From: a virus
Taxonomy: Duplodnaviria > Caudoviricetes
IMG/VR virus record: IMGVR_UViG_3300027743_000030
Location: 1,018-65,017 of that record
DNA: 64,000 bases
Strand: one strand, 5' to 3'
A program made the translations under genes and the position numbers. Shown in pieces: positions 2,931-17,215 of this stretch. How positions within the stretch are numbered: the stretch's first letter is position 1; every line of letters starts with the position of its first letter. The notes under the pieces were generated by a model that did no database searches, had not been told where the DNA came from, and saw only the letters and a list, made by a program, of their open reading frames with translations.

Positions 2931-3131
2931 TTAGCAGTCGTCGTCCACGTCGCGGAAGTCGCCTTCATCCTCGATCTTGAGCTGGCTGCTGGCGAGCAAT
3001 CGCCGCACGTCATCGGACGCAATGTCGGCGAGATACGCAACCGTATGTCCAGCCGGAATGATCAGCTTGCCGCCTCGACCGTCATCAACTTCCAAATCCT
3101 TGTCGGTAACGTTTGTGAGCATGACAGACAT
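2931..3131 (-). CDS. Hypothetical protein
   Basis: MSVMLTNVTDKDLEV...; start approximate. Confidence 0.5.
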   Translation of the reverse strand: MSVMLTNVTDKDLEVDDGRGGKLIIPAGHTVAYLADIASDDVRRLLASSQLKIEDEGDFRDVDDDC

Positions 3132-3251
3132 CGGAGCTGCCCTCCTATTCGAGCTGCAGCACAGTGCCACAAGATCAAAAAGAACGCGCAAAACTTGACT
3201 TTCCGCACTCGAAAATCGCCTAACTCCTTGTTTTGACGTGCCTTATACGGC

Positions 3252-3279
3252 TTGCGAAGCCCAGGGCAGCCGCTATAAT
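3252..3279 (+). promoter_or_regulatory. Candidate sigma70 promoter of the early operon
   Basis: TTGCGA-16 nt-TATAAT in the divergent intergenic region. Confidence 0.45.
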
Positions 3280-3488
3280 CGATTTTCGATTAAGAAGTGA
3301 GTGTTTGCTACCCTGCTGTTTGACAATTCGAGCGCCGCACGACCCGCGTCCAAAGCGACGTGCGCCCTACCCGCAGCTCGATCCATAGTCGCTCCAAGTC
3401 ATGCGCGCTTCGGCATTGCCCCCGAGGATCGAGCCCGACGCGCATAGATGTGGGAGAGACCGAAAACGACTCCATGACAGTGTGACAA

Positions 3489-3599
3489 TACTTAGGACGG
3501 CATGACGCGACTCACGTTGCGCTCGTGCCGTCTCAAAGTGTTGCCTTCGCAACACTCGCCGCGCTTGCAGCGGCGCATCTCAAAATTGGAGTCACGAAA
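3489..3599 (+). ncRNA. Structured leader motif, copy A
   Basis: Hairpin GACGGCATGA/TCGTGCCGTC; AGTGTTGC/GCAACACT; CGCCGC-gCTTGCA-GCGGCG; GGAGTCAC then ATG at 3600. Confidence 0.75.
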
Positions 3600-3797
3600 A
3601 TGAAAGTAGAATTCAGAACCCACGAATACGAGTGGTCGCACGGCAAGCAGCCGCGCGGTTACGGCTATTGGGCGTTTAGCTTTCCCGGCACGCAAGCCGA
3701 CTTCTTTTGGTTTCAAGGCTCGTACAGCGACGCCAAGAAAGCAGCCAAGGACGAAGCGCGCCGCCGCAACTTCGCAGAAGTGAAGGTGATGCCGTGA
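3600..3797 (+). CDS. Small early protein (65 aa)
   Basis: MKVEFRTHEYEWSHGKQPRGYGYWAF...; SD GGAG. Confidence 0.8.
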   Translation: MKVEFRTHEYEWSHGKQPRGYGYWAFSFPGTQADFFWFQGSYSDAKKAAKDEARRRNFAEVKVMP

Positions 3798-3997
3798 GCA
3801 CGTCAATCGATCAGATCAGATTGGCTGACGGCTCGCGCGTTCGCTGCGGGCTGATCGTTCACCGCGTTGACGATCCGTTCCACGTTGCGCGGATCGAGAA
3901 AGTTCACGGCGCAATGAAGCTGACTGTTCAATGGGAGAACGGGTGGCTTGAATTGGGCTGCGAGCCCGACGAATTCCAGCGATGGAATGGAGAGTGA
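3794..3997 (+). CDS. Small hypothetical protein
   Basis: GTGA overlap with previous stop; 67 aa. Confidence 0.65.
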   Translation: MSTSIDQIRLADGSRVRCGLIVHRVDDPFHVARIEKVHGAMKLTVQWENGWLELGCEPDEFQRWNGE

Positions 3998-4094
3998 TCA
4001 CTACAGAGCAGCGCCGCGCGCGCTGCTCGATAGTGTTCATCCTGAACACTCGCCGCCTTGCATGCGGCGTTTCTCGAAACATGAGTCACACATC
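3998..4094 (+). ncRNA. Structured intergenic motif, copy B
   Basis: CACTA..GAGCAGCG/CGCTGCTC..TAGTG; AGTGTTCA/TGAACACT; CGCCGC-CTTGCAt-GCGGCG; GAGTCAC. Confidence 0.8.
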
Positions 4095-5117
4095 ATGACA
4101 AACCACCTTACCGCCCAGGCCGAGGTTTCCATCGCAACGGCAGCCGAGATGATGGAAGATTATACCGAGGCGGGCGACAACGTGTTCCTTTGGGGTGCAC
4201 CCGGCATCGGTAAGACCGATATCGTGCACCAGCTCGGAGCGCGGAAGAAACGTTGCGTCCTCGAATTCCACGCAGCCTTGCGTGAGTCCGTTGATCTGCG
4301 CGGCGTTCCTTCCGTTGATCTCAAGACGGGGACCACCAAATGGTTCACGCCTGACGAGCTACCGCAAGCGAAGCGCGACGGCGAGGAAGGTTATCTGTTC
4401 CTCGACGAATTCAATCAAGCAAGCCCGCAGATGCAAGCGGTGCTTGCCGGGTTGGTGCTGTACGGGACGATTGGCGACTATCGCTTGCCGAAGGGCTGGC
4501 GCTGCATCGCTGCGGGCAACCGCGTCTCTGATCGTGCAGCTGCGCAGCGAATGCCCTCGCACATGCGAAACCGTTTCGCGCACATTTACTGTACGCCAGA
4601 CGTGATTGCGTGGACGAATTGGGCCAGCACGAACGGCGTCGCACCCGAGATGGTTGCTTTCATTCGCTTGCGACGCGAGTTGATCCACCGCATGCCTCGC
4701 GGTGACGAGAATGCGTTTCCCACGCCGAGGTCACTGACCAAGGCTGCGAAATACATCAACGCCGCTGATGATCGTCGCTTGCGATTGTTAGCCGGCCTGA
4801 TCGGTGACGACGTTGCAGCCGAGTTGAACGGCTTCATCCGGCTTTATCGATCGCTCGGCAGCCTGGAAGATATCGTGGCCAATCCCGACCGCGCCAAGAT
4901 ACCGACCGAGCCAAGCGAACGATGGGCAGTCTGCACCGGCCTTGCGCGTCTCGCTGACCGCAAGAATTTCCCGCAGATCATGAAGTATGCCGCACGGCTC
5001 GACGGTGAGCCCGCGACGCTGCTTGTTCATGACGCAACGATGATCAAGCCCGAGCTAAAGCAGACGGCCGCCTATTCGAAGTGGGCCGTTGAACATTCTG
5101 ACTTGATCCTACAGTGA
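4095..5117 (+). CDS. MoxR/CbbQ-like AAA+ ATPase
   Basis: Walker A GAPGIGKT, Walker B LFLDEFNQA, IAAGN sensor, NRF arginine finger, PTPRS. Confidence 0.9.
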   Translation: MTNHLTAQAEVSIATAAEMMEDYTEAGDNVFLWGAPGIGKTDIVHQLGARKKRCVLEFHAALRESVDLRGVPSVDLKTGTTKWFTPDELPQAKRDGEEGYLFLDEFNQASPQMQAVLAGLVLYGTIGDYRLPKGWRCIAAGNRVSDRAAAQRMPSHMRNRFAHIYCTPDVIAWTNWASTNGVAPEMVAFIRLRRELIHRMPRGDENAFPTPRSLTKAAKYINAADDRRLRLLAGLIGDDVAAELNGFIRLYRSLGSLEDIVANPDRAKIPTEPSERWAVCTGLARLADRKNFPQIMKYAARLDGEPATLLVHDATMIKPELKQTAAYSKWAVEHSDLILQ

Positions 5118-5213
5118 CCACTACAGAGGGCAGCGCACGCGCTGCCTTCGATAGTGTTCATGTGAACACTCGCCCCTTGCAGGGCGCTGTCAGAAGACAA
5201 GGAGTCACAAGTC
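5118..5213 (+). ncRNA. Structured intergenic motif, copy C
   Basis: CACTA/TAGTG; GGCAGCG/CGCTGCC; AGTGTTCA/TGAACACT; CGCCC-CTTGCA-GGGCG; AAGGAGTCAC. Confidence 0.8.
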
Positions 5214-6272
5214 ATGACAACGAAACTCAAAGGTGCAGCGAAGCGCGAAGCTAAGGGCTTGCCGCCGATCAAGGCGCGCAAGCCAGTAGCTCCCAAGGCT
5301 GCGATGGCGATGATCAAGCCTGCAGCTGCAGACGTGATCAACGTACCGTATCGCGAGCTAACGAAAGCGCCGAGCAAACCCAGCAAGCCGCTTGCCTCGC
5401 CGCTGTCTCGCAAGGCGACGCTTGTGTCAGTCGCTGTTGCACAGTGGACGGCCCGCAAGCTGGACCGCAAGCTGACCAACGAAGTGTTGCGCTCGAAAGG
5501 CGCGACGCCAGATGCCGGCCGGTTCAACAAGTTGCTGATCGAAGCCAAGCACCTCGAAAAAATCGGCTCACTCGTGTCGCAAGCGCGCAACGCGCACTAT
5601 CGCTACACCAAGCCGTGGTGCGATGACGGTATGCGAATTCTGCCGAACGAGCTTCACCAGAAGTTCGCCGACGAATTCCGTCGCATCAAGCGCGAGTTCC
5701 ACGAGGCGGCCGATGAATTCTGCCGCGACTATCCCTCGTTTATCGAGGAGCGCAGAACGGCGCTTGCGAAGATGTTCAACGAGGCCGACTACCCGAGCGC
5801 GCGGGACATTCGAAGCAAGTTCAAACTCGACTCGAAGTTGTTTCCCGTCCCCGACGTTGGCGACTTTCGCTCTGATACTCTCGACGCTGACACGATCGAG
5901 GATATCAAGCGCGATCTCGCCGAGACAAACGAACGCGTGTTGAGCGACGCCATGAAGCACTCGGCCGAGCAGATCATCAAAGTGGTCGGCCACATGTCGG
6001 AGAAGCTGCACGAGTACAAGCCGAGCAAGAGCAAGAAGGGCAAGAAAACATTTTTCACCAACTCGCTGGTGGAGAATGTTCGTGAGCTTGCAGACTTGCT
6101 GCCTGCGTTCAACTTCACCAACGATCCCGAGTTGAACCGCATTGCAGCTCGCATGAAGCGCGAGCTATGCCAAGACGATGCCAAGGAGCTGCGGGTGAGC
6201 GAACGCGTGCGCGTCACCGTGCAGAAGTCGGCAGACGACATCCTGAAAGATGTCAACAAGCTGCTAGGCTGA
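5214..6272 (+). CDS. DUF3150-like helical protein (AAA/VWA partner)
   Basis: LVSV...WTARKLD...GRFNKLL...TKPW.D.G.R.LP; lies between AAA and VWA genes. Confidence 0.65.
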   Translation: MTTKLKGAAKREAKGLPPIKARKPVAPKAAMAMIKPAAADVINVPYRELTKAPSKPSKPLASPLSRKATLVSVAVAQWTARKLDRKLTNEVLRSKGATPDAGRFNKLLIEAKHLEKIGSLVSQARNAHYRYTKPWCDDGMRILPNELHQKFADEFRRIKREFHEAADEFCRDYPSFIEERRTALAKMFNEADYPSARDIRSKFKLDSKLFPVPDVGDFRSDTLDADTIEDIKRDLAETNERVLSDAMKHSAEQIIKVVGHMSEKLHEYKPSKSKKGKKTFFTNSLVENVRELADLLPAFNFTNDPELNRIAARMKRELCQDDAKELRVSERVRVTVQKSADDILKDVNKLLG

Positions 6273-6366
6273 TCGGCCATAGCGTGAACGGCGAGCGCGC
6301 CTCGCCGTTTGCAGTGGGGCCGTACCTCACTCCGTCCTTGCAGACGGTCAATCAAGGAGTCACACA
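6273..6366 (+). ncRNA. Structured intergenic motif, copy D (diverged)
   Basis: GAACGGCGAG/CTCGCCGTTT; AGTGGGG/CCTCACT; CCGTC-CTTGCA-GACGG; AAGGAGTCAC. Confidence 0.75.
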
Positions 6367-7755
6367 ATGGAAAATCATGACGTGGACAAGACAGCTGCTC
6401 AACGCGTTGCAAAAGCGCGCGCCGAGCTGATCTTGTCGCAAGTGTTCTATTCCGTGCTGGTATCGAACGTTGATCCCAAGCCGTCGCGAGCCGTTCCCAC
6501 GATGGCGACCGATGGGCGCAACCACTTCTATAATCCAGACTTCATTGCGACGTTGACACAGACACAGCTGCTCGCAGTGCAAGCGCACGAAAGCGAACAC
6601 GATGCCCGCCGCCATCACAGCCGCAGAAACGGCCGTGATCCCGAGGAGTGGAACATCGCTTGCGATCTCGCAATCAATCCTGATCTGCAAGACGCAGGCT
6701 TCCAGCTCCCCGAGTGGGTGCTGCTCGATCGGAAATACCGAGGCATGTCTGCCGAGGATATCTACCGAACGCGGGAGCTTGATCGCGCCAAGCAGCAACA
6801 GCAGGACGATGATCAAGACGAGCCTTCGGAAGAGGAACTTGACGACGCCGAGGCCGAGGCGAACAAGGGCGACGCTGACGACGACGACAACGACAACGAC
6901 AACGACCACGGCGACTGCAACGAAAACGAAGACGAGGACAGCAGCGGCGACACCGGCGACGGTGACGGCGACGAGCAGTCAGAGGATGACGCCAGCCCCG
7001 GCGACGGGGAGGGTGAAGGCAAGGGCGATCCGACAAGCAGCGGCGACCCTGGCCGCATGGGCGAAGTGCTCGACGCTTCCGAGAACGTCGCCGAGCTGGC
7101 AGCTGCAGACAGTCAGTGGGAAACAATCCTGCGACAAGCTGCATTCCTTGCCGAGAAACGCGGCACGATGCCCGGCCATGTCACGCGTGAAATCAAGCGC
7201 GCTGACAACCCGCCGCAAGACTGGCGTGAGACGTTGCGAGCATACTTTGATCAAGGCTCGCTCAAGATCGAAACATGGAACCGGCCCAATCGTCGCTTTG
7301 CCGGTGCGGGCATTTACTTGCCCGGCCAGCGTCGCGACGGCATCAACCGCGCCGTGTTTCTGATCGATACCAGCGGCTCGATGGATCAAGTTGCGCTCGC
7401 TTGCATCAACAATGAAGCCCAAGCCGCGCTGGACGACGGTGTGCTTGATGAAGTTGACGTGATCTATGGCGACACGCGAGTCACTCGTGTCGACAACTAC
7501 CGCCAAGGCGACGAAATACAATTCGATCCCCGAGGCGGGGGCGGCACTGATCTCAAGCCGCTGTTCAAGCACGTAGCAGACGAAATTGAGGACGCGTCCT
7601 TGATCGTCTGTTTCTCAGACATGGAAATTGGCGATCCTGGCCCCGAGCCCGCGTGCCCCGTGCTGTTCGCAGCAACGGGGTATCCCGAGAGCGTGCGCCG
7701 TTATCTCGCCAATGCTCCGTGGGGCGCGCCCGGCATCGATGTCGGCACGCATTGA
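6367..7755 (+). CDS. DUF2201-type putative metallopeptidase + VWA domain protein
   Basis: TMATDG, HESEH (HExxH), WNIACDLAIN, long acidic linker, MIDAS DTSGS, GGGGTD. Confidence 0.9.
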   Translation: MENHDVDKTAAQRVAKARAELILSQVFYSVLVSNVDPKPSRAVPTMATDGRNHFYNPDFIATLTQTQLLAVQAHESEHDARRHHSRRNGRDPEEWNIACDLAINPDLQDAGFQLPEWVLLDRKYRGMSAEDIYRTRELDRAKQQQQDDDQDEPSEEELDDAEAEANKGDADDDDNDNDNDHGDCNENEDEDSSGDTGDGDGDEQSEDDASPGDGEGEGKGDPTSSGDPGRMGEVLDASENVAELAAADSQWETILRQAAFLAEKRGTMPGHVTREIKRADNPPQDWRETLRAYFDQGSLKIETWNRPNRRFAGAGIYLPGQRRDGINRAVFLIDTSGSMDQVALACINNEAQAALDDGVLDEVDVIYGDTRVTRVDNYRQGDEIQFDPRGGGGTDLKPLFKHVADEIEDASLIVCFSDMEIGDPGPEPACPVLFAATGYPESVRRYLANAPWGAPGIDVGTH

Positions 7756-7850
7756 TCACTAAGCGCGGCCCTGCGGGGCCGCGTCATAGTGTTCAATCGA
7801 ACACCCCGCACTTGCAGCGGGTGATCTGCAAAAGGAAAGGAAGTCACATC
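7756..7850 (+). ncRNA. Structured intergenic motif, copy E
   Basis: CACTA/TAGTG; GCGCGGCCC/GGGCCGCGT; GTGTTC/GAACAC; CCCGC-aCTTGCA-GCGGG; GGAAGTCAC. Confidence 0.8.
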
Positions 7851-8117
7851 ATGACTGCTACCAAACGTAAACCGAGCCCCGTCATGCAACGGGCCGGGCG
7901 CGACGCGCGCGTCAGCAGGGAGGTCAATGCTGCTCTGGCTCAAGTCGAACGCGAGTTGATCGCTATCATCAAAAAAATCTGCGCTCCACGCTACAAGCAG
8001 AAAGAGACGATCAGCCCCGCTCAAGCCTATCGTCTCGCCAATCAGCGTCATCGTGGACCGGGACCGACGCCAGCGCGGCTGATGTACAAGATACAAAACG
8101 GCAGCAAAGTACCGTGA
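7851..8117 (+). CDS. Small basic hypothetical protein
   Basis: ATG directly after motif E; 88 aa. Confidence 0.7.
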   Translation: MTATKRKPSPVMQRAGRDARVSREVNAALAQVERELIAIIKKICAPRYKQKETISPAQAYRLANQRHRGPGPTPARLMYKIQNGSKVP

Positions 8118-8210
8118 TCACTGCAGAGGGGCTGCAACGTGCAGCCCTTCGACAGTGCTCATCCGAGCACTCCCGCCTTGCAGCGGGTTATCTGAAAAGG
8201 AGTCACGTCA
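8118..8210 (+). ncRNA. Structured intergenic motif, copy F
   Basis: CACTG/CAGTG; GGGCTGC/GCAGCCC; AGTGCTC/GAGCACT; CCCGC-CTTGCA-GCGGG; AAGGAGTCAC. Confidence 0.8.
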
Positions 8211-8381
8211 ATGGAACCCTATACAATCTTTCTGATCGTCTGCGCTGTCTTGGGCGTTCTGCTCATTCGCTACATGGGCGGCAATAACCCATTCACCACG
8301 CGGCTTTGCAATGCGTGTCGCGAAGTCATCAATGACCGTGCGGAAATCTGCCCGCACTGCCACACCGCGACCGGGAAGTGA
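8211..8381 (+). CDS. Membrane-anchored zinc-ribbon protein (56 aa)
   Basis: Manual translation MEPYTIFLIVCAVLGVLLIRY...CNAC...CPHC; too short for ORF track. Confidence 0.75.
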   Translation: MEPYTIFLIVCAVLGVLLIRYMGGNNPFTTRLCNACREVINDRAEICPHCHTATGK

Positions 8382-9109
8382 TCGCGATGACAACGATCCC
8401 CAAATGGAAACCGCTGCGGCGCGCCGGCACCAAGCCAGCGTCTGCAGCATTGATCGGCGAGACAATGCGCATTTACAAAATCAACGCCGAGGAAGCGAAG
8501 CGCATGCTGGATGAATACGAATCGGGAAGCGAATACTGGCTCAACGATCTGTATCAAGTGCAAGTGCGTCGCTTCGACGTTGCCGGTGTGCACATCAACA
8601 TCCGGCGACGCGACGGCGGCCCGATCCTGCGTGACTGGCGACACTTCCAGCAGATCAAGAATGAGCTGCTGGGGCCAGAGTGCGAAGCGATCGAGCTGTA
8701 CCCCGCCGAGAGCCGCAAGGTGGACGAGTCGAACAAGTACCACCTATTCGGCTACAGCGACGGCCGGCGCATCCCGATCGGCTTCGAAACTCGCAACGTC
8801 AATCTGGACACGCAAGGCGATCGCAAGACCGATCGTGGAATGCGTCAGCGCGGCAAGACGATGGAATTCCCCGAGGGAGTTCCGACGCGGCGTTGCCAAA
8901 TGTGCGGAGCGATCGAGGACGAAATGCACCACGATCGATCCGCGCGCGATCGTGTCACGACGCTGAGCCAGATCACGCATGAAGACAAGCCGATGCTGGT
9001 TTGCATGTTGTGCGAGGAAGGCCACAGCGAATGGAAAGCGGCGCAATGCTGTTCCTATCACGCCAACGGCGGCGACTTGTCGCTTAGTTGTGGCGGGGAC
9101 ACGCCATGA
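8378..9109 (+). CDS. Phage protein with C-terminal Cys cluster
   Basis: DWRHFQQIKNELLGPECEAIELYPAES..VD..N.YHL motif; CQMC/CMLC. Confidence 0.75.
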   Translation: MIAMTTIPKWKPLRRAGTKPASAALIGETMRIYKINAEEAKRMLDEYESGSEYWLNDLYQVQVRRFDVAGVHINIRRRDGGPILRDWRHFQQIKNELLGPECEAIELYPAESRKVDESNKYHLFGYSDGRRIPIGFETRNVNLDTQGDRKTDRGMRQRGKTMEFPEGVPTRRCQMCGAIEDEMHHDRSARDRVTTLSQITHEDKPMLVCMLCEEGHSEWKAAQCCSYHANGGDLSLSCGGDTP

Positions 9110-9345
9110 GAACGCTCGCCATCTGCGCCGTCCTGATCGTCCTGACAGGATCGGCGACTGCCGGCTCGGCATCGTACTACCGAGCCAACGGCAGCTATGC
9201 CGGATCATCCATCACTCGCAACGGCCACACCACCTACACCAATTCCGGTGGGGCCTATGTCGGATCGTCCAGCACGCGCGGAAACACCACGACGGTCTAT
9301 GATCGCAACGGCAGCCGCGCCGGATCGATCGTGGGGAGACGCTGA
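9106..9345 (+). CDS. Small secreted repeat protein
   Basis: Signal peptide then three YxxxGxxxGS-like repeats. Confidence 0.7.
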   Translation: MRTLAICAVLIVLTGSATAGSASYYRANGSYAGSSITRNGHTTYTNSGGAYVGSSSTRGNTTTVYDRNGSRAGSIVGRR

Positions 9346-9346
9346 C

Positions 9347-9529
9347 ATGAACCGCAGCGACTTCTTTGATCAAGGTTACGAGCAGCACAAGGACGCCCCC
9401 GACATGCTGCTCGCGGAAGTCTGGCGTTTTGCTTGCATGTTCATCGATGATCAAGAGAATGCCCGCGCCTTCGTTGAAGGCTACACCGCCGCGCGCAAGC
9501 AGCGCGACGAGCACCAGAAGGAAGACTGA
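9347..9529 (+). CDS. Hypothetical protein (60 aa)
   Basis: SD GGAG, MNRSDFFDQGY... Confidence 0.65.
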   Translation: MNRSDFFDQGYEQHKDAPDMLLAEVWRFACMFIDDQENARAFVEGYTAARKQRDEHQKED

Positions 9530-9534
9530 AACTC

Positions 9535-9572
9535 AAAAGCCCCGACTGCGCGAGCAGCCGGGGCTTTTTTTT
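9535..9572. terminator. Intrinsic terminator, probably bidirectional
   Basis: AAAA-GCCCCGACTGC-GCGA-GCAGCCGGGGC-T8; the plus-strand A.C mismatch is a G.U pair on the minus strand. Confidence 0.85.
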
Positions 9573-9578
9573 GGCGTG

Positions 9579-9774
9579 CCGGTCTTGCATTCCGACAGCC
9601 CGCCGCGCGCTCTGCGAGTCACGAGCACGGCGCGCGCGATTGCGCAAACGTATCGGCTTCGCCTCGCACTCGCAACGGACCATTTGCCCAAGTCTAGCGC
9701 GTTCGTTTTCAACTTGCGGCGAGGCTGTGCGGTGACGTTTTCATCTTGCAAAAATATCCCTTGTGCAAGACCGG
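9579..9774. ncRNA. Candidate multi-stem non-coding RNA
   Basis: Terminal 11-bp inverted repeat CCGGTCTTGCA/TGCAAGACCGG; inner ACAGCCCGCCGC/GCGGCG(A)GGCTGT; TGCGAGT/ACTCGCA. Confidence 0.5.
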
Positions 9775-9823
9775 GGACTCCTCTCAACTCGCAATCGCAA
9801 ATGTGTTGCCAGCCAAATGGAGA

Positions 9824-10018
9824 ATGACCGTGTTTAACGACGAGAAACTGGCGCGCGAACCGCGCCCTTATGCGCCCTGCCTTGTGCTCGGCACCGTGAA
9901 GGCCGAGGGTCCGCGACGCATCAGCTACTACCGCGCGCACGATGGGCTGCTGATTTTCATCACGCGGCATTGGGGCGTGCACACTGTGCCCTGCCCGCAA
10001 TGCGAGGACGCATCGTGA
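9824..10018 (+). CDS. Small hypothetical protein (C-terminal CPQC)
   Basis: SD GGAG; 64 aa. Confidence 0.6.
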   Translation: MTVFNDEKLAREPRPYAPCLVLGTVKAEGPRRISYYRAHDGLLIFITRHWGVHTVPCPQCEDAS

Positions 10019-10194
10019 AGCGATCTCGCAAGCAGCCGCCCGCGCCGGTGCGCTTGAACGCAGTCGGCAAGCCGCTGTCCCCGCTGTTCGATCCCAAGTG
10101 GAAACGCAAGATGCCGCTCACGTCGATCCGGCGTCTGCTCGTGCCCTATCGTCCCGGCACGATGCGGTGGGTTCACGAACGCGAAGACGCCTGA
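10015..10194 (+). CDS. Small basic hypothetical protein
   Basis: GTGA overlap with previous gene. Confidence 0.5.
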   Translation: MKRSRKQPPAPVRLNAVGKPLSPLFDPKWKRKMPLTSIRRLLVPYRPGTMRWVHEREDA

Positions 10195-10299
10195 ACACGT
10201 TCTGCCGCCGATACACCCCCGGCGGCCGAAGGGGCCGCGTTGCGATTGGTATTCAGTCCGTGACGCAGCCCCACCTTTCTCTAACAAAAGGAGCCGCTG

Positions 10300-10662
10300 G
10301 TGAAAGCGATCTCAATCAAGCAGCCGTGGGCGCACTTGATCATTGCTGGCTTGAAGCCGATCGAGAACCGGACGTGGACGACACGCTATCGCGGGCCACT
10401 TTTGATTCATGCGTCGCGACGCATGTGCGTGGAAGTCGAAGCGATCGAGCAAGCCTTCGGCGTCGCGATCGATCGCAAGCAGCTGCATTTCGGCGCGCTG
10501 ATCGGTGTCGTTGATCTGATCGACGTGGTGAAGGAATCGGCATCGCCCTGGTTCGAAGGGCCGTTCGGTTGGGTCATGAAGAACGCGCGACCGATCAGGC
10601 CCGTCCCTTGGCGCGGCCAGCTCAGTCTTTTTGATGTCGCCCGCAAACTGGAGGAGCTGTGA
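10300..10662 (+). CDS. ASCH domain protein
   Basis: KAISIKQPWA.LI..G.K.IENRTW.T.YRGPLLIHAS signature. Confidence 0.92.
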   Translation: MKAISIKQPWAHLIIAGLKPIENRTWTTRYRGPLLIHASRRMCVEVEAIEQAFGVAIDRKQLHFGALIGVVDLIDVVKESASPWFEGPFGWVMKNARPIRPVPWRGQLSLFDVARKLEEL

Positions 10663-10835
10663 TGTTCGTTTTATTGGCATACGAGAAGGACGCGGACGGC
10701 TTCGTGCTCGCGATGGTGATTGGGCCATTCGATGACGAGGCCGACGCGTGGACATTTCACGAAGGCAACGTGAGCTGCGACCACGCCGACGTGGTGCGGC
10801 TCGTGAGCGTGCAAGAGATCAACGAGGCAAAGTGA
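10662..10835 (+). CDS. Small hypothetical protein (57 aa)
   Basis: TGATG coupling; MFVLLAYEKDADG..IGPF. Confidence 0.6.
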   Translation: MFVLLAYEKDADGFVLAMVIGPFDDEADAWTFHEGNVSCDHADVVRLVSVQEINEAK

Positions 10836-10848
10836 AAGGAAGAAAGCC

Positions 10849-11046
10849 GTGGTTAAGAAAAGCAATCCGATTTTTGAATCTGAAATGTGCCGCTCCAATC
10901 GCGTTCAAGGATTGACCGATGGGCGGCGCGATCTCAAAGCCGAACTCGATGCTGTGCACGCCCTCATGTTAGAGCGCGAGCGGCAGGGATTGGTCGAAAA
11001 TGTCGGCTGGCGGAAATGGGTCGTGCTCTATGGGGGTAAGTCATGA
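10849..11046 (+). CDS. Hypothetical protein
   Basis: 65 aa, ATGA overlap with resolvase. Confidence 0.5.
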   Translation: MVKKSNPIFESEMCRSNRVQGLTDGRRDLKAELDAVHALMLERERQGLVENVGWRKWVVLYGGKS

Positions 11047-11594
11047 CTGCCTACGGCTATGCGCGCGTTTCGACGCGCGATCAAGACTTGAGCGGCCAGC
11101 TTGCCGAGCTGACGGCCGCCGGCTGCGCTCACGTCCATCAAGAGAAACGCTCCGGGGCAAAGACCGACCGCCCAGAGCTTGCAAACGTCCTTGCCAAACT
11201 TGGCGCGGGCGACGTGCTGATGGTGACGCGGCTCGATCGGCTGGCACGATCGACGCGCGATCTGCTCAACGTCATCAATGAAGTGTCAGCGCGCGGGGCC
11301 GGCTTTCGCTCGCTCAAAGATGCGTGGGCCGACACCACCACACCGCATGGGCGGCTGATGCTGACAATCCTGGGCGGGCTCGCTGAATTCGAGCGCGAGC
11401 TGATCAGAGCACGCACCGGCGAGGGGCGGCAGCGCGCACAAGCGCGCGGCGTGCGCTTCGGCCGGCCGGGCAAGCTCACGAGCGCTGATCGCCGCGCGAT
11501 CCGCGATCGACTGCAGCGCGGCGAAACGCAAGTATCGATCGCGAAAGCTTTCGGCGTGCACGAGGCGACGATCAGCAGGAGGAAGCGAACGTGA
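11043..11594 (+). CDS. Small serine recombinase (resolvase/invertase family)
   Basis: YGYARVST, V.RLDRLARS, AEFERELIRART..G, C-terminal HTH. Confidence 0.95.
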   Translation: MTAYGYARVSTRDQDLSGQLAELTAAGCAHVHQEKRSGAKTDRPELANVLAKLGAGDVLMVTRLDRLARSTRDLLNVINEVSARGAGFRSLKDAWADTTTPHGRLMLTILGGLAEFERELIRARTGEGRQRAQARGVRFGRPGKLTSADRRAIRDRLQRGETQVSIAKAFGVHEATISRRKRT

Positions 11595-11690: not shown

Positions 11691-12275
11691 ATGGACGGAA
11701 TCGACGCTGACGTGGTGCCGACGCTGCCGAGCGACATCGCATCGTTCTGGCACAAGCACCCGCTCGACAAGCGCGCCGAGCGCAAGATTGCCGACGTTGG
11801 CAATGGTCAATACGTGGTCGAGATACGCGGCACGTTTGAAATCTTTCGCTTCAGCGTGCCCGAGTACGGCGAGGTCGTGTTTGACATTCGCGGCATCAAG
11901 GACGCGCTCGCTGACGGCAAGCTGCAGTTTCGAATGTACGAGATGCAGCTGATCGCGGAGATGGTCGAGCATGTGCGCAACAACAACGGCGTGGAAGTCG
12001 GACGCATGCGCGAGCTGACCGCCGCCGATCTGGAGCGGCCCGGCATCATGGCGCTGTGGCCGGACTGGCACACCACCTGCATCGACGGCAACAATCGCAT
12101 GGTGCGTCGCTGGGATGACGGGCTGCGCACGTTCCGCTTCGCGCTGATCGTGATGGACGAGACGATCCAGCCCTATGTCTGCCGGCCGGGCGAGGAAGCT
12201 GACACGTTCCTCGATCGCGAAAACGAAGCACGCGGCTTGCAGTCGATCGCACGCATGATTGTGCCGCACCAATGA
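11691..12275 (+). CDS. Hypothetical protein, possible ParB/Srx-like fold
   Basis: PGIM...CIDGNNR resembles the ParB DGHHR motif. Confidence 0.55.
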   Translation: MDGIDADVVPTLPSDIASFWHKHPLDKRAERKIADVGNGQYVVEIRGTFEIFRFSVPEYGEVVFDIRGIKDALADGKLQFRMYEMQLIAEMVEHVRNNNGVEVGRMRELTAADLERPGIMALWPDWHTTCIDGNNRMVRRWDDGLRTFRFALIVMDETIQPYVCRPGEEADTFLDRENEARGLQSIARMIVPHQ

Positions 12276-12370
12276 ACGACTGGAGCAACGAATACATCCT
12301 CGCGGTGTCGTGGGTGCTATCAATCGCGCTGTTCGCGGTGTTCTGCGCAACGCTGCATCGGGTGATCTGA
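12272..12370 (+). CDS. Single-TM peptide (32 aa)
   Basis: ATGA and TGATG coupling at both ends; hydrophobic. Confidence 0.5.
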   Translation: MNDWSNEYILAVSWVLSIALFAVFCATLHRVI

Positions 12371-12729
12371 TGCGCTTCGATCTCACTCGGCCGTGCGGCA
12401 ACTGCCCGTTCCGCAATGACATCCATTTCGGGCTGCGCCCCGAGCGCGTGCGCGGCATTCTCGGCGGCGGCAAAGGGCGCGATTGGTTTCCCGCGCCTTC
12501 GTTCCCCTGTCACAAGACGATCGAATATACCGACGACGACGGCGCGATCATTCCGGCGACAGCGCAGCAATGTGCGGGCGTGATGATCATTCTGCACCGC
12601 GAGAACAGGCACAACGACGCCATGCAGATTGCCGAGCGTCTTGGATTGTGGGACTCGTCCAAGCTCAATCTGACCGCGCCGGTGTATGCTTCGACCGCAG
12701 CTGCAATCCGGGGACAGGACTATGACTGA
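12370..12729 (+). CDS. Cys-rich metal-binding phage protein
   Basis: PCGNCPFR...FPCHKT...QCAG. Confidence 0.75.
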   Translation: MRFDLTRPCGNCPFRNDIHFGLRPERVRGILGGGKGRDWFPAPSFPCHKTIEYTDDDGAIIPATAQQCAGVMIILHRENRHNDAMQIAERLGLWDSSKLNLTAPVYASTAAAIRGQDYD

Positions 12730-13077
12730 GGAAGATCACACCAAGCTGCTGCGCTGCGTGCTCAACGGCATGGGCAAGTGCCTCGCCAACATTCCCGAGG
12801 CTTGCCTATGCCTGCAGATGCCGCCCGACGTGTTCGAGGCGGCGTGGCGCTACTTCAATGAACCGCTGCCGCTCGATAAGGATTGAACATCATGAGCATC
12901 GATTGGACAGACGTGCACGATGATTTCGATAGCGACGGCAATTTAATCGGCGACACGCAGCGGAGGAAGGTTCCCAACGGCTATCTGTACCGCACGCGCA
13001 TTTTAAACAGTGATGGATGGCAAGCCGTCGCGCTGTGCTTCGTCCCCTACGTTGATCCGAGCGACTTAATACCATGA
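12722..13077 (+). CDS. Two small hypothetical ORFs (12722-12886, ~12892-13077)
   Basis: Tightly packed, co-oriented. Confidence 0.5.
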
Positions 13078-15190: not shown

Positions 15191-15501
15191 CCGTGCTTCC
15201 GTAATGTGACGCCGTGTCGGCCCAGCACGTCACTCAAGGCGTCGACCGACATTACCCCGAGATTGGACATCCGCAACAGCTTGGTCCGGCTCAAATACGT
15301 GACCAGATCATGCACCGTCTGCAACGGCGGATGGCCGTGCTGCTCGCGTTCTTTGTTCTCATACCAAATGGCGGTGTGGAAGCGCACGTTGAGCGGGCTC
15401 CGCAGCTCGATCGATTCGAGCGGCGTGGATAGGAACTCGTTGCTCGGCGACAGCCGCCGCCACAGGATCGTGGCGTCAACAAAATCCCACGCCTGCGTCA
15501 T
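15187..15501 (-). CDS. Stand-alone RNA polymerase alpha C-terminal-domain-like protein
   Basis: LSTPLESIEL...NVR...TVHDLV..SRTKLLRMSNLG..S...L..VL..HG..L matches the alpha-CTD HhH pattern. Confidence 0.7.
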   Translation of the reverse strand: MTQAWDFVDATILWRRLSPSNEFLSTPLESIELRSPLNVRFHTAIWYENKEREQHGHPPLQTVHDLVTYLSRTKLLRMSNLGVMSVDALSDVLGRHGVTLRKHG

Positions 15502-16634
15502 ACCGGCTCCGTCAGACACACCCGCTCGGCCAGGGCGCGATCGGCCTTGGCCCCAACATATACAAAGCTGGCGGTGAAACGATCCGACGCCCGGTAGCTG
15601 CCAAGATGGGCCTTGGCCCCGGTGTCGCGGGCGGTGCGTGAGGGTGCGCGCGTCATGCGCCAGTTGGGATCATGCGCGGCACCGGCAATCTCGGCCGGAT
15701 GCCCGGTGTTGCGAAACACCCGAAAGTCCATCGCCGAGTACATGCTGGCACACGCCGTGATCAGCTTGTTGCCAATGCCGCAGCCCTGATAGTCCGGCAA
15801 CACCACTGACCTATGCCCGCGCACCGCACGCTGATGGGTCGAATGCCGCCCGACAAACGGCAAGTAGCTGTGAAACGCCACCGCGCGGCCCTCGGTGAAG
15901 GCGCAGAAACACCGGGCACCCTTGTGCAGCTCTGCCGTCAAGTAGTGGTGGCGAGAAAACAAACGCCACGCCGAACTATGCACGCGCGCAACGTCGAGCT
16001 GGATGGCCGGTCGTCGCCGAAGCAACCTCCATTGAAAATCATCGCTCGCCGGCAGGTAAATCCAGTCCGGGTCGAGCCAGTCAATCACGTCGTCATGACA
16101 GGTCACCGCAATGAACTTCTGGTTTCTTTTGCGCACGGTCTTGGCCACGGCAAGGCTGCCGATCTTTCCGACCACGCGGTCGACCACGCTGGTGAACTCG
16201 TCAAATACCAGGAGCCCGGCATGCTCGGCCAAAGCCCGCGCCAGCGTGGCGCGGAACTGCTCGCCGTTCGACAGCACACTATGCGGACGCAGCCAGCTCG
16301 GCGGTGAGCTGAAACCCACCGACGACAGCAGCATGGTGATGTCCTTGATCGACATCGCGGCGGGAAACTCGTCAATCACCGCGCGGTCGGCATGCCAATC
16401 GAGAGTGGTGGTGTAAGCTTCCGGCCAAAGTGTTTTTGCAATCGTGGTCTTGCCGCAACCGCTCGGGCCGACAATCAAGCCCACTTGCCACTCGTGCTGA
16501 TCCAGCGGCAAGCTGACACGCCACTCCAACTCGCTGCGATCGGACGGGGACACGTCAAATATCCCCTCCAGCTGCATCACCCGCGCACTGCGCACAATCG
16601 GTGAAGAGCGCTTGATGGTCGCCGATAACGTCAT
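15498..16634 (-). CDS. ABC-type ATPase fused to GNAT acetyltransferase
   Basis: GPSGCGKT, LSNGE signature, VFDEFTS, VTCH; C-terminal R.VVLPDYQGCGIG acetyl-CoA motif. Confidence 0.9.
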   Translation of the reverse strand: MTLSATIKRSSPIVRSARVMQLEGIFDVSPSDRSELEWRVSLPLDQHEWQVGLIVGPSGCGKTTIAKTLWPEAYTTTLDWHADRAVIDEFPAAMSIKDITMLLSSVGFSSPPSWLRPHSVLSNGEQFRATLARALAEHAGLLVFDEFTSVVDRVVGKIGSLAVAKTVRKRNQKFIAVTCHDDVIDWLDPDWIYLPASDDFQWRLLRRRPAIQLDVARVHSSAWRLFSRHHYLTAELHKGARCFCAFTEGRAVAFHSYLPFVGRHSTHQRAVRGHRSVVLPDYQGCGIGNKLITACASMYSAMDFRVFRNTGHPAEIAGAAHDPNWRMTRAPSRTARDTGAKAHLGSYRASDRFTASFVYVGAKADRALAERVCLTEPV

Positions 16635-17215
16635 GCAATCAACGCCCGGCAGCGAACGCCGTCAGCGGCGAGACGTGTCAGCAGCTCGGCTTGCTGCTGC
16701 TCGTCTTTGCACTCGATCAGAATTTGGAACGTCGGCGTTAGCTCCGGTGGCAGCGGCGGCTCGTCGGCGAGCAACTTCATCAGCTGCTTGTCCTCGAAGC
16801 CCAAGGCCTGGGCGTCGAAGTCGTCCTTGATCGCCAGCAATTCCTCCAGGAGAACATCGTCGTGCCAGTTGCTGGTTTCAGAGAGCCGGTTGTCGGCAAT
16901 GCCGTAAGCGCGGCATTGGGCCTCCGACCAGCCTCTGGCGATCATCACCGGAACCTCTTGCAGGTTCTCCAGCTGCGCGGCTTGGAGCCGCCCGTGGCCC
17001 GCTATCACCGTGCCGTCCTCGCGAATGAGGAGCGGAATCGTCCAGCCAAATTGTCGGAGAGATGCCCGCAGCTGATCAATCTGCGTGGAAGGATGCGCAC
17101 GCGCGTTTCTTGCGTAGGGTTTTAGTTTGGCAATCGGCCAGCGCTCGATCTGCGGCTGACGCTGCTCGGGGCCAAAGACCGGCGACTCGGTTGGCTGCGC
17201 TCGCTGCCCGCGCAT
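16631..17215 (-). CDS. ParB/Srx N-terminal domain protein
   Basis: LKPYARNARAH...SL.QFGWT.PLL...IAGHGRL.AA...ADNR. Confidence 0.9.
   Translation of the reverse strand: MRGQRAQPTESPVFGPEQRQPQIERWPIAKLKPYARNARAHPSTQIDQLRASLRQFGWTIPLLIREDGTVIAGHGRLQAAQLENLQEVPVMIARGWSEAQCRAYGIADNRLSETSNWHDDVLLEELLAIKDDFDAQALGFEDKQLMKLLADEPPLPPELTPTFQILIECKDEQQQAELLTRLAADGVRCRALIA

Follow-up and report, generated by a model that had tools for sequence, protein, structure and literature searches.

Why would a phage keep, directly behind the terminator of its early operon, a copy of a gene leader that precedes no gene? The question is raised by a stretch of 64,000 nucleotides (nt) from the IMG/VR virus record IMGVR_UViG_3300027743_000030, here called the window, in which one composite leader design precedes six cistrons of the early operon. 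To judge from its sequence, the segment 9523–9641 of the window (the core) is an orphan leader, in which both hairpin 1 and the start codon are lacking. Our tentative answer is that the core may be the gene for a trans-acting antisense RNA of ~112 nt, made from the minus strand between 9641 and ~9528 and acting on all six leaders.

The early operon spans 3600–9529 on the plus strand, encodes AAA_5 ATPase, DUF3150 and DUF2201 metallopeptidase/VWA proteins among other products, and closes at a strong hairpin (9535–9568) with A8 on the 5′ side of the stem and T8 on the 3′ side. Its promoter (TTGCGA-16-TATAAT, 3252–3279, plus strand) is the sole strict sigma-70-type match in the region 3000–11000. 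Each leader begins with hairpin 1 (AGTGTTC..GAACACT), followed by hairpin 2, whose stems vary from copy to copy around a constant CTTGCA loop, and ends with 14–23 nt of open sequence, the ribosome-site word G(G/A)AGTCAC (TGAGTCAC in leader 2), 3–5 nt and ATG. The word GAGTCAC occurs eight times in the 64 kb against ~4 expected copies, and seven of the eight lie within 3589–9616; a word count found zero copies of GTGACTC in the 64-kb window. We argue from these sequences that the leaders function at the RNA level, because co-varying stems surround a fixed, non-palindromic loop and because hairpin 1 of the relatives contains U-G pairs. A function of the leaders as promoters was ruled out, since their spacing is variable and a −10 element is absent.

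The module that contains the core extends over 9523–9768 and aligns with two relatives, L001 and L068, at 75–77%, and the genes on both of its flanks differ from lineage to lineage. The relatives were gathered by a search with the DUF2201 protein, and the L001 lineage is also represented by L002, L065, L071 and L072. Conservation is not uniform along the module but peaks in the core (Table 1), which consists of 12 nt including the upstream stop codon, the terminator, a hairpin with a CTTGCA loop and a GC-rich hairpin with GAGTCAC at its tip. The terminator stem shows compensatory changes in the relatives (CG to UA and GC to AU). The GC-rich hairpin, SL1, is the most conserved part of the module, and a 2-nt insertion of L001 sits in its loop. 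The distance from CTTGCA to the site word is 26 nt in the orphan versus 14–23 nt in the six leaders. The module is non-coding because its indels between the relatives are 1 and 2 nt long, which rules out a small open reading frame in the element. Contigs from four DNA runs that cover 9300–10000 have the same sequence with no joints, although contigs cannot reveal rare forms, and one 330-nt contig from these runs is an L068-type variant.

Each of 12 lineages examined (the window, L072, L068, L067, L078, L082, L073, L074, L098, L086, L084 and L083) has an orphan leader, consisting of the hairpin and the ribosome-site word with no open reading frame, directly 3′ of the terminator that closes the early operon. 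This count comprises the lineages whose locus shows the end of the early operon with a terminator; it leaves out L085, L087, L088, L091, L089/90, L092–94, L099 and L070, whose loci are without CTTGCA-type leaders, and L066/L076, L075, L003, L096, L069, L097 and L100, whose contigs stop before the operon end. An orphan was not seen in L095 at 12150–12900. In 11 of the 12 lineages, the hairpin at the orphan position carries the loop word of the phage's own leaders, and its stem differs in every lineage. The orphan loop words are CTTGCA(A) in seven lineages, CTGCAAA or GTGCAAA in L073, L074 and L084, and CTAGCAA in L083. The site words, which fall into the types GGAGTCC, GGAGTCG and GAGTCTACAAT (the L086 type) among the lineages, also match those of the phage's own leaders: GGAGTCCG in L067, GGAGTCG..AAAAT in L098, GAGTCTACAATG in L086 (a 12-nt match) and GGAGTCACC in L078 and L084. 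An open reading frame behind the orphan word was found in none of the lineages; the sole start codon past it in L086 opens a frame of seven codons. The site word is embedded in A-rich open sequence in the leaders, and in the orphan it is often located at a hairpin tip or unpaired.

The minus strand of the core bears the complements of the leader words. They are arranged as GUGACUC, 26 nt and UGCAAG, which is the colinear order for antiparallel pairing to CUUGCA...GAGUCAC. To the right of the site word, the minus strand of the window reads TTGCGA-17-TACGTT, TGCGC and AATCGCG, and the promoter score of this arrangement is exceeded by few shuffles of the same stretch (p = 0.034). A −10 element starting with TA, 5–7 nt and AATCGC are common to the window, L072, L068, L067 and L086, four of which also have TTG at −35; TTGGCC-17-TATATA was recognized by eye in L083. 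When promoter-like scores in 10 lineages were compared with shuffles of the same 100 nt, the combined Fisher p value was ~1e-4 for the minus strand and ~0.08 for the plus strand. We also favour the minus strand because the drop of conservation at ~9641 coincides with the predicted start of transcription and because the conserved 12 nt to the left of the terminator correspond to a U-rich tail (UUUUGAGUUUC). By eye, the 10 nt past the minus-strand stem contain 6–8 U in the window, L072, L068 and L067, and L083 has a long U-rich tail. In L086, a separate minus-oriented terminator that serves no minus-strand gene lies directly left of the orphan. With a covariance model of the minus-strand RNA, built from three close lineages, a full-length match to the element of L067 was obtained (39 bits, E = 3e-8); further minus-strand matches, which are weaker (E = 1.8e-4 to 0.012) and whose scores derive partly from the terminator, coincide with the orphans of L086, L078, L098 and L082 or lie next to them.

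The minus strand from 9640 to 9526 is predicted to fold into three hairpins, of which the third (SL3) is the terminator, with −62.6 kcal/mol and, with the terminator included, a z-score of −4.05. In this fold, GUGACUC and UGCAAG are each located in a 9-nt apical loop. Pairing to the leaders was searched as gap-free helices weighted by accessibility, since folding of whole-length duplexes gave unrealistic full-length duplexes. In silico, the best helix on each of the six leaders involves one of the two seeds, with energies of −5.9 to −10.7 kcal/mol; the strongest, on leader 1, is GAGUCACGA:UCGUGACUC, with a total of −10.7 kcal/mol. A value of −5.9 was reached by none of the 42 other start regions of the window that served as controls, and the sense-strand RNA gave −0.4 to −5.5 kcal/mol against the leaders. 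Among 120 dinucleotide shuffles of the RNA body, none matched the weakest of the six energies and one matched their sum. Partly circular though this test is, it does show seed words that are displayed and specific.

Table 1. Coordinates of the leaders, of the conserved module and of its predicted parts in the window
Feature	Position	Strand	Remarks
Leader 1	3537–3602	+	Hairpins 1 and 2; CTTGCA 3564; GGAGTCAC 3588; ATG 3600; predicted target
Leader 2	4032–4097	+	CTTGCA 4057; TGAGTCAC 4082; ATG 4095; AAA_5 ATPase gene
Leader 3	5153–5216	+	CTTGCA 5176; GGAGTCAC 5201; ATG 5214; DUF3150 gene
Leader 4	6312–6369	+	CTTGCA 6337; GGAGTCAC 6356; ATG 6367; DUF2201/VWA gene
Leader 5	7788–7853	+	CTTGCA 7811; GAAGTCAC 7840; ATG 7851
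Leader 6	8154–8213	+	CTTGCA 8177; GGAGTCAC 8199; ATG 8211
Upstream coding end	left of 9523		28–44% pairwise identity
Core	9523–9641		86–88% pairwise identity
Module between core and right block	9642–9744		57–68% pairwise identity
Right block	9745–9768		79–92% pairwise identity
Predicted U-rich 3′ tail of the minus RNA (UUUUGAGUUUCAGUCU)	9523–9534	-	Overlaps the stop codon TGA (9527–9529) of the upstream plus-strand gene; kept in L001 and L068 though the upstream genes differ
Two-way intrinsic terminator	9535–9568	both	15-nt arms, 93% complementary; ends the early operon and, in the model, the minus RNA
SL2, orphan copy of leader hairpin 2	9573–9600	-	Minimum-energy fold; loop GAAUGCAAG with UGCAAG, the complement of CUUGCA
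SL1, GC-rich hairpin	9601–9638	-	Loop UCGUGACUC with GUGACUC, the complement of GAGUCAC (9616–9622)
Predicted transcription start (AAUCGCG...)	9640–9641	-	~6 nt past the −10 element; high conservation stops here
Predicted minus promoter	9647–9675	-	−35 TTGCGA (9675–9670), 17-nt spacer, −10 TACGTT (9652–9647)
Less conserved spacer	9676–9744		57–65% identity; window-specific repeats, CGTTTTCAnCTTGC twice, 32 nt apart
Conserved block CTTGCAAAAATATCCCTTGTGCAA	9745–9768	+	Candidate operator and −35 TTGTGC of the next rightward operon
Right arm of the 11-bp repeat (9764–9774) and GACTCCT (9776–9782)	9764–9782	+	Window-specific, not in the conserved element

These features suggest a mechanism that would run as follows. 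Transcription would proceed leftward from a weak sigma-70-type promoter, starting near 9641 and stopping at the two-way terminator (9535–9568). SL1 would present GUGACUC to the ribosome-site word of the leaders and SL2 would present UGCAAG to the loop of hairpin 2, so that a loop–loop kiss at hairpin 2 would be combined with pairing across the Shine-Dalgarno region. The result would be a block of translation or a triggered decay of six early cistrons at once, and in consequence an operon-wide shut-off or immunity. The segment 9642–9768 would serve as a divergent promoter/operator region shared with the next rightward operon.

Several observations weigh against this proposal. The antisense RNA is an unproven prediction from sequence: we infer its transcription, strand, ends and regulatory effect from the anatomy, conservation, co-variation and predicted pairing that we observed. 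A strict promoter scan of 9570–9830 found no promoter, the predicted minus promoters are weak (e.g. TACCAC in L072), and in four of the 10 lineages (L072, L074, L086 and L082) they score at the level of shuffles. The minus-strand tail contains little U in L082 and a moderate amount in L078, L073, L074 and L098. The window, L072 and L068 are related, and these lineages are therefore not independent. Strand-specific signals are mixed: the minus strand folds more stably in 6 of 10 lineages, an equivocal asymmetry; G-U pairs speak for the minus strand in L078 but for the plus strand in L067; and of the substitutions in SL1, one fits each strand. In L086, the sole exception to the agreement of loop words, the loop of the orphan hairpin is unlike those of the leaders, and the orphan site word of L074 has drifted to GGAGCC. 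The body of the window RNA alone folds no better than shuffles (z = −1.16). Finally, the seeds are short (6–9 nt), and the pairing test is partly circular, as the element was noticed for these very words.

The agreement between orphan and leaders is equally predicted by gene conversion, which also counts against the antisense proposal. In this case, the orphan would be a sense copy of the leader with no role as an RNA regulator, namely the n+1th repeat at the end of a cassette array, which gene conversion would maintain like the other copies and which would mark a recombination boundary, and the remainder of the module would be the promoter/operator of the next operon. The words of the orphan are identical, not complementary, to those of the leaders and follow the type of each phage, start regions are strikingly uniform within a genome (GGAGTCTACAATG in eight L086 copies), and the gene order between leader copies varies among the relatives (9346–9510 in the window versus 5603–5767 in L001). 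The XRE-like genes, palindromes and strong L082 promoter found downstream of the orphans are also in line with this explanation, as is the shuffling mediated by the repeated regulatory cassettes of T4-type phages (PMC2839356). However, a neutral scar should have decayed or vanished somewhere, yet the orphan is present in all of the 12 lineages, and in the clade of the window it is 86–92% conserved, above its surroundings. It also has features that are foreign to the leaders: hairpin 1 is lacking, no lineage has a start codon, and the site word is placed at the tip of a GC-rich hairpin in several of them. Moreover, the left edge of conservation does not coincide with a leader copy but lies 12 nt past the terminator, at the would-be tail of a minus-strand RNA. 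A sense copy of the leader that is maintained by gene conversion is still a serious rival to the antisense RNA, although we consider it rather unlikely.

A second alternative, which we judge improbable, is that the orphan acts on the plus strand in read-through transcripts, either as a decoy or as an additional site at which a phage RNA-binding protein binds or a phage RNase cuts, with the hairpin-2 loop and GGAGUC of every leader as the recognized signal; it might also reload an antiterminator for the next operon. The stems of hairpin 2 co-vary around a fixed loop as in a protein-bound hairpin, the U-G pairs of hairpin 1 are on the plus strand, the orphan holds both elements in the order and spacing of the leaders, its location, with operons of the same direction on either side, would be appropriate for a read-through signal, and the G-U evidence of L067 favours this strand. 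On the other hand, the strong T8 terminator ahead of the orphan would allow few plus-strand copies, which does not suit a decoy, and the next promoter of L082 lies ~170 nt beyond the orphan, placing it outside the primary transcript of that operon. Furthermore, no candidate RNA-binding protein was identified, and the conserved minus-strand tail and the promoter-like layout would be left unexplained.

A preliminary description of this locus had presented 9535–9790 as a highly paired non-coding element of ~200 nt and a candidate trans-acting partner, and its general idea of a trans-acting RNA partner of the leader motif is retained here with comparative support; what we abandon is the stem-closed plus-strand form with seeds at 9764 and 9776. 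The words themselves lie exactly where they had been placed (CTTGCA at 9584 and 9745, GAGTCAC at 9616, TGCAAG at 9764 and GACTCCT at 9776), and the adjacent terminator is indeed usable on the minus strand, with an A-run 5′ and a T-run 3′. Predicted pairing to the six leaders is specific, by comparison with shuffled controls, for the minus-strand RNA and is weak for the plus-strand RNA. The perfect 11-bp inverted repeat is present (CCGGTCTTGCA, 9579–9589, and TGCAAGACCGG, 9764–9774, with 174 nt between the arms) but does not amount to a meaningful closing stem: the window contains 18 pairs of 11-mer inverted repeats with loops of 20–300 nt, against 8.8 ± 4.3 in 30 mononucleotide shuffles, and both relatives that have the element (L001 and L068) retain only TTGCA/TGCAA of this repeat. 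The region is highly paired when the terminator is included (z = −2.99 on the plus strand and −4.26 on the minus strand); without it, the plus strand folds no better than shuffles, as 9569–9775 alone gives z = −1.10 (29 of 200 shuffles fold equally well) on the plus strand and z = −2.56 (2 of 200) on the minus strand. GACTCCT is not supported as a seed: it lies beyond the conserved block, which ends at ~9768, and is missing from both relatives with the element, so that TGCAAG (9764) and GACTCCT are not conserved as a pair. At the level of sequence, the true signal is the pair CTTGCA (9584) and GAGTCAC (9616), which sit in invariant blocks in the order of the leaders, and neither the closed 200-nt structure nor the GACTCCT seed extends beyond this one sequence; we judge the structure to be window-specific because its repeat is near chance and not kept in the relatives and because the plus-strand fold is unexceptional. 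A plus-strand RNA covering 9579–9774, closed by the 11-bp stem and carrying the seeds TGCAAG (against the leader loop) and GACUCCU (against AGGAGUC), is highly improbable: both seed words and the stem exist in the window, where TGCAAG with GACTCCT ≤12 nt further on is expected ~0.04 times by composition (a rough estimate from word counts), yet stem and GACTCCT are missing from both relatives that keep the module, the repeat is within chance, the fold is not above shuffles, the order of the seeds on the plus strand is inverted relative to colinear antisense pairing, and promoter scans did not find a plus-strand promoter.

Further searches were made for other elements in the module and for more distant copies of it. 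No family of Rfam matched anywhere in the window at the gathering thresholds, and no tRNA or tmRNA was found. A sigma-54 promoter at TGGCGTGCCGGTCTTGCA was ruled out by eye, as the GG-to-GC spacing is 14 and not 12. In viral contigs, a 16-mer scan gave 24 matches, all of which, except for the two known contigs, were due to chance or to coding sequences; patterns of block G and SL1 found only the two known contigs; and GTCTTGCA-N6-CAGCCCGCC found 39 stretches, unrelated except for the two known contigs and mostly belonging to one conserved protein-coding gene.

On the right of the core, 9745–9768 probably provides the operator and the −35 element (TTGTGC) from which the next operon is transcribed rightward; the first gene of this operon starts at 9830. 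The window has TTGTGC-17-TCAACT and L068 has TTGTGC-17-CACGAT. An XRE-like gene that has a palindrome of its own is located directly downstream in L001 and L068, and an XRE-like gene is also found downstream in L078 and L067. L082 has a strong TTGCCA-17-TATATT promoter ~170 nt past the orphan; several TTGGCC-containing repeats and palindromes surround it (L082 12650–12740) and are probably operators. This arrangement appears to resemble a divergent switch region. A small serine recombinase (11043–11594; Resolvase and HTH domains, 183 amino acids) is encoded 1.2 kb to the right of the element and is kept in L001 and L068. Despite this nearby recombinase gene, an invertible DNA switch (inverton) is not supported, as the 11-bp repeat is missing from L001 and L068 and within chance. 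Farther right, at 15498–17215 on the minus strand, an ABC/AAA ATPase–GNAT acetyltransferase fusion (378 amino acids) adjoins a ParB_N-domain protein (194 amino acids), which is an unusual pair.

The leaders and the early operon showed several additional features. Start regions are near-identical inside one genome and different between genomes: GGAGTCAC in the window, GGAGTCTACAATG in L086, GGAGCAAGCCA(A)ATG in L091 and GGAGTCACC in L084 (in several operons). The L086 sequence is present in all eight listed hairpin-preceded leader copies of that genome (L086 4953–11480). The bases after GGAG in these regions add no further pairing with the 3′ end of the 16S rRNA. An extra GC-rich hairpin without a T-run, e.g. 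GGCAGCGCACGCGCTGCC, occurs right after the preceding stop codon before each intergenic leader (4010–4030, 5130–5150 and 8128–8148 in the window and equivalent positions in the relatives), and the full repeat unit therefore comprises three hairpins. The loop CUUGCAA (L078, L082, L098 and L066) contains the palindrome UUGCAA, and identical hairpins could in principle kiss; in the window-type loop CUUGCAG, only UGCA is self-complementary. Between the early promoter and the ATG at 3600 is an untranslated leader of ~310 nt (3280–3599), and upstream lies a small divergent open reading frame on the minus strand (2931–3131), for which a family match was not found. In the DUF2201/VWA protein (6367–7755), the metallopeptidase-like and VWA-like parts are separated by a long low-complexity insert, which is highly acidic, is rich in D/E/Q/G and differs in length among the relatives. 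The last gene of the early operon in the window (9346–9510, 60 amino acids) corresponds to L001 5603–5767 with 88% identity; it is located farther upstream there, which fits cassette shuffling between leader copies.

The window derives from a tailed phage. Among its products are a major head protein, proteins of the baseplate and tail fibres, an endolysin and a RecE/RecT-like pair. No near DNA match was found in the phage collection, and at the protein level the identity to any of 50,697 phage records is 34% at best, indicating that there is no close cultured relative. Of two scans of genome contigs, the first gave no match and the second gave one short contig from a metagenome-assembled Alphaproteobacteria genome, the sole genome match. 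It is conceivable, though we hold this broader proposal with somewhat more reserve than the existence of the RNA itself, that a clade of uncultured Alphaproteobacteria phages runs its whole early operon by one antisense RNA that is encoded back-to-back with the operon terminator and reads a two-part signature before each cistron, and that the regulator and its six to nine targets co-evolve. If this is true, regulator–target co-evolution would explain why start regions are uniform within genomes and divergent between them, and selection would account for the concerted way in which the translation-start regions of one genome evolve. The system would also be a compact phage example, open to testing, of antisense control over many targets, with one regulator and many identical docking sites, and a portable two-seed RNA switch for which the natural variants (three loop words and several site words) form a specificity panel. 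If the RNA is not real, this unstudied phage group would still be marked by a leader array that is widespread, unusually regular and in every case accompanied by an orphan copy.

The predicted RNA can be compared with several small regulators of phages and plasmids. In a permissive Rfam search of 9400–9900, which returned only sub-threshold matches, the best was sar on the terminator hairpin (25.9 bits versus a gathering threshold of 43); Rfam lists sar as an antisense gene. P22 sar and lambda OOP are short, cis-encoded leftward RNAs that end at a terminator and pair with an early message in its ribosome-binding or coding region. Both overlap their targets and are fully complementary to them, whereas the RNA predicted here would act in trans through seeds of 6–9 nt. 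In CopA/CopT and RNAI/RNAII, which are cis-encoded, fully complementary and control replication, seeds of 6–7 nt in the apical loops of stable hairpins meet a complementary target loop; unlike in these kissing-loop plasmid RNAs, complementarity is confined in the present case to the loops and the ribosome-site word. On the target side, the leaders recall the PeSL cassettes of T4-type phages, in which a regulatory motif is repeated before early genes and linked to gene shuffling between relatives (PMC2839356). In both cases, a short composite regulatory motif is repeated before many early genes. However, PeSL consists of a strong sigma-70 promoter and a terminator stem-loop, whereas the leaders of the window are without −35 and −10 elements at fixed spacing and look like RNA hairpins with a ribosome site; in addition, PeSLs are not known to include an orphan copy that serves as an antisense gene.

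A close parallel is c4 of phages P1 and P7. The c4 RNA uses two seeds and is cut from the same transcript as its single target region, upstream of and co-directional with it. The two short seeds in loops, one of them over the ribosome-binding site, are also present here in silico. Unlike c4, the predicted gene is convergent with its targets, lies behind the operon terminator, would have its own promoter and would address six to nine dispersed targets. The predicted RNA would work like c4 and is a member of no curated RNA family. C4 of P1/P7 is described as an antisense RNA that is needed for full repression of ant (PMC8198154, citing Citron & Schuster 1990). The predicted RNA would share with c4 (immI) the nature of a small phage RNA with short complementary stretches, one of which covers the ribosome-binding region, and a place in an immunity or timing circuit.

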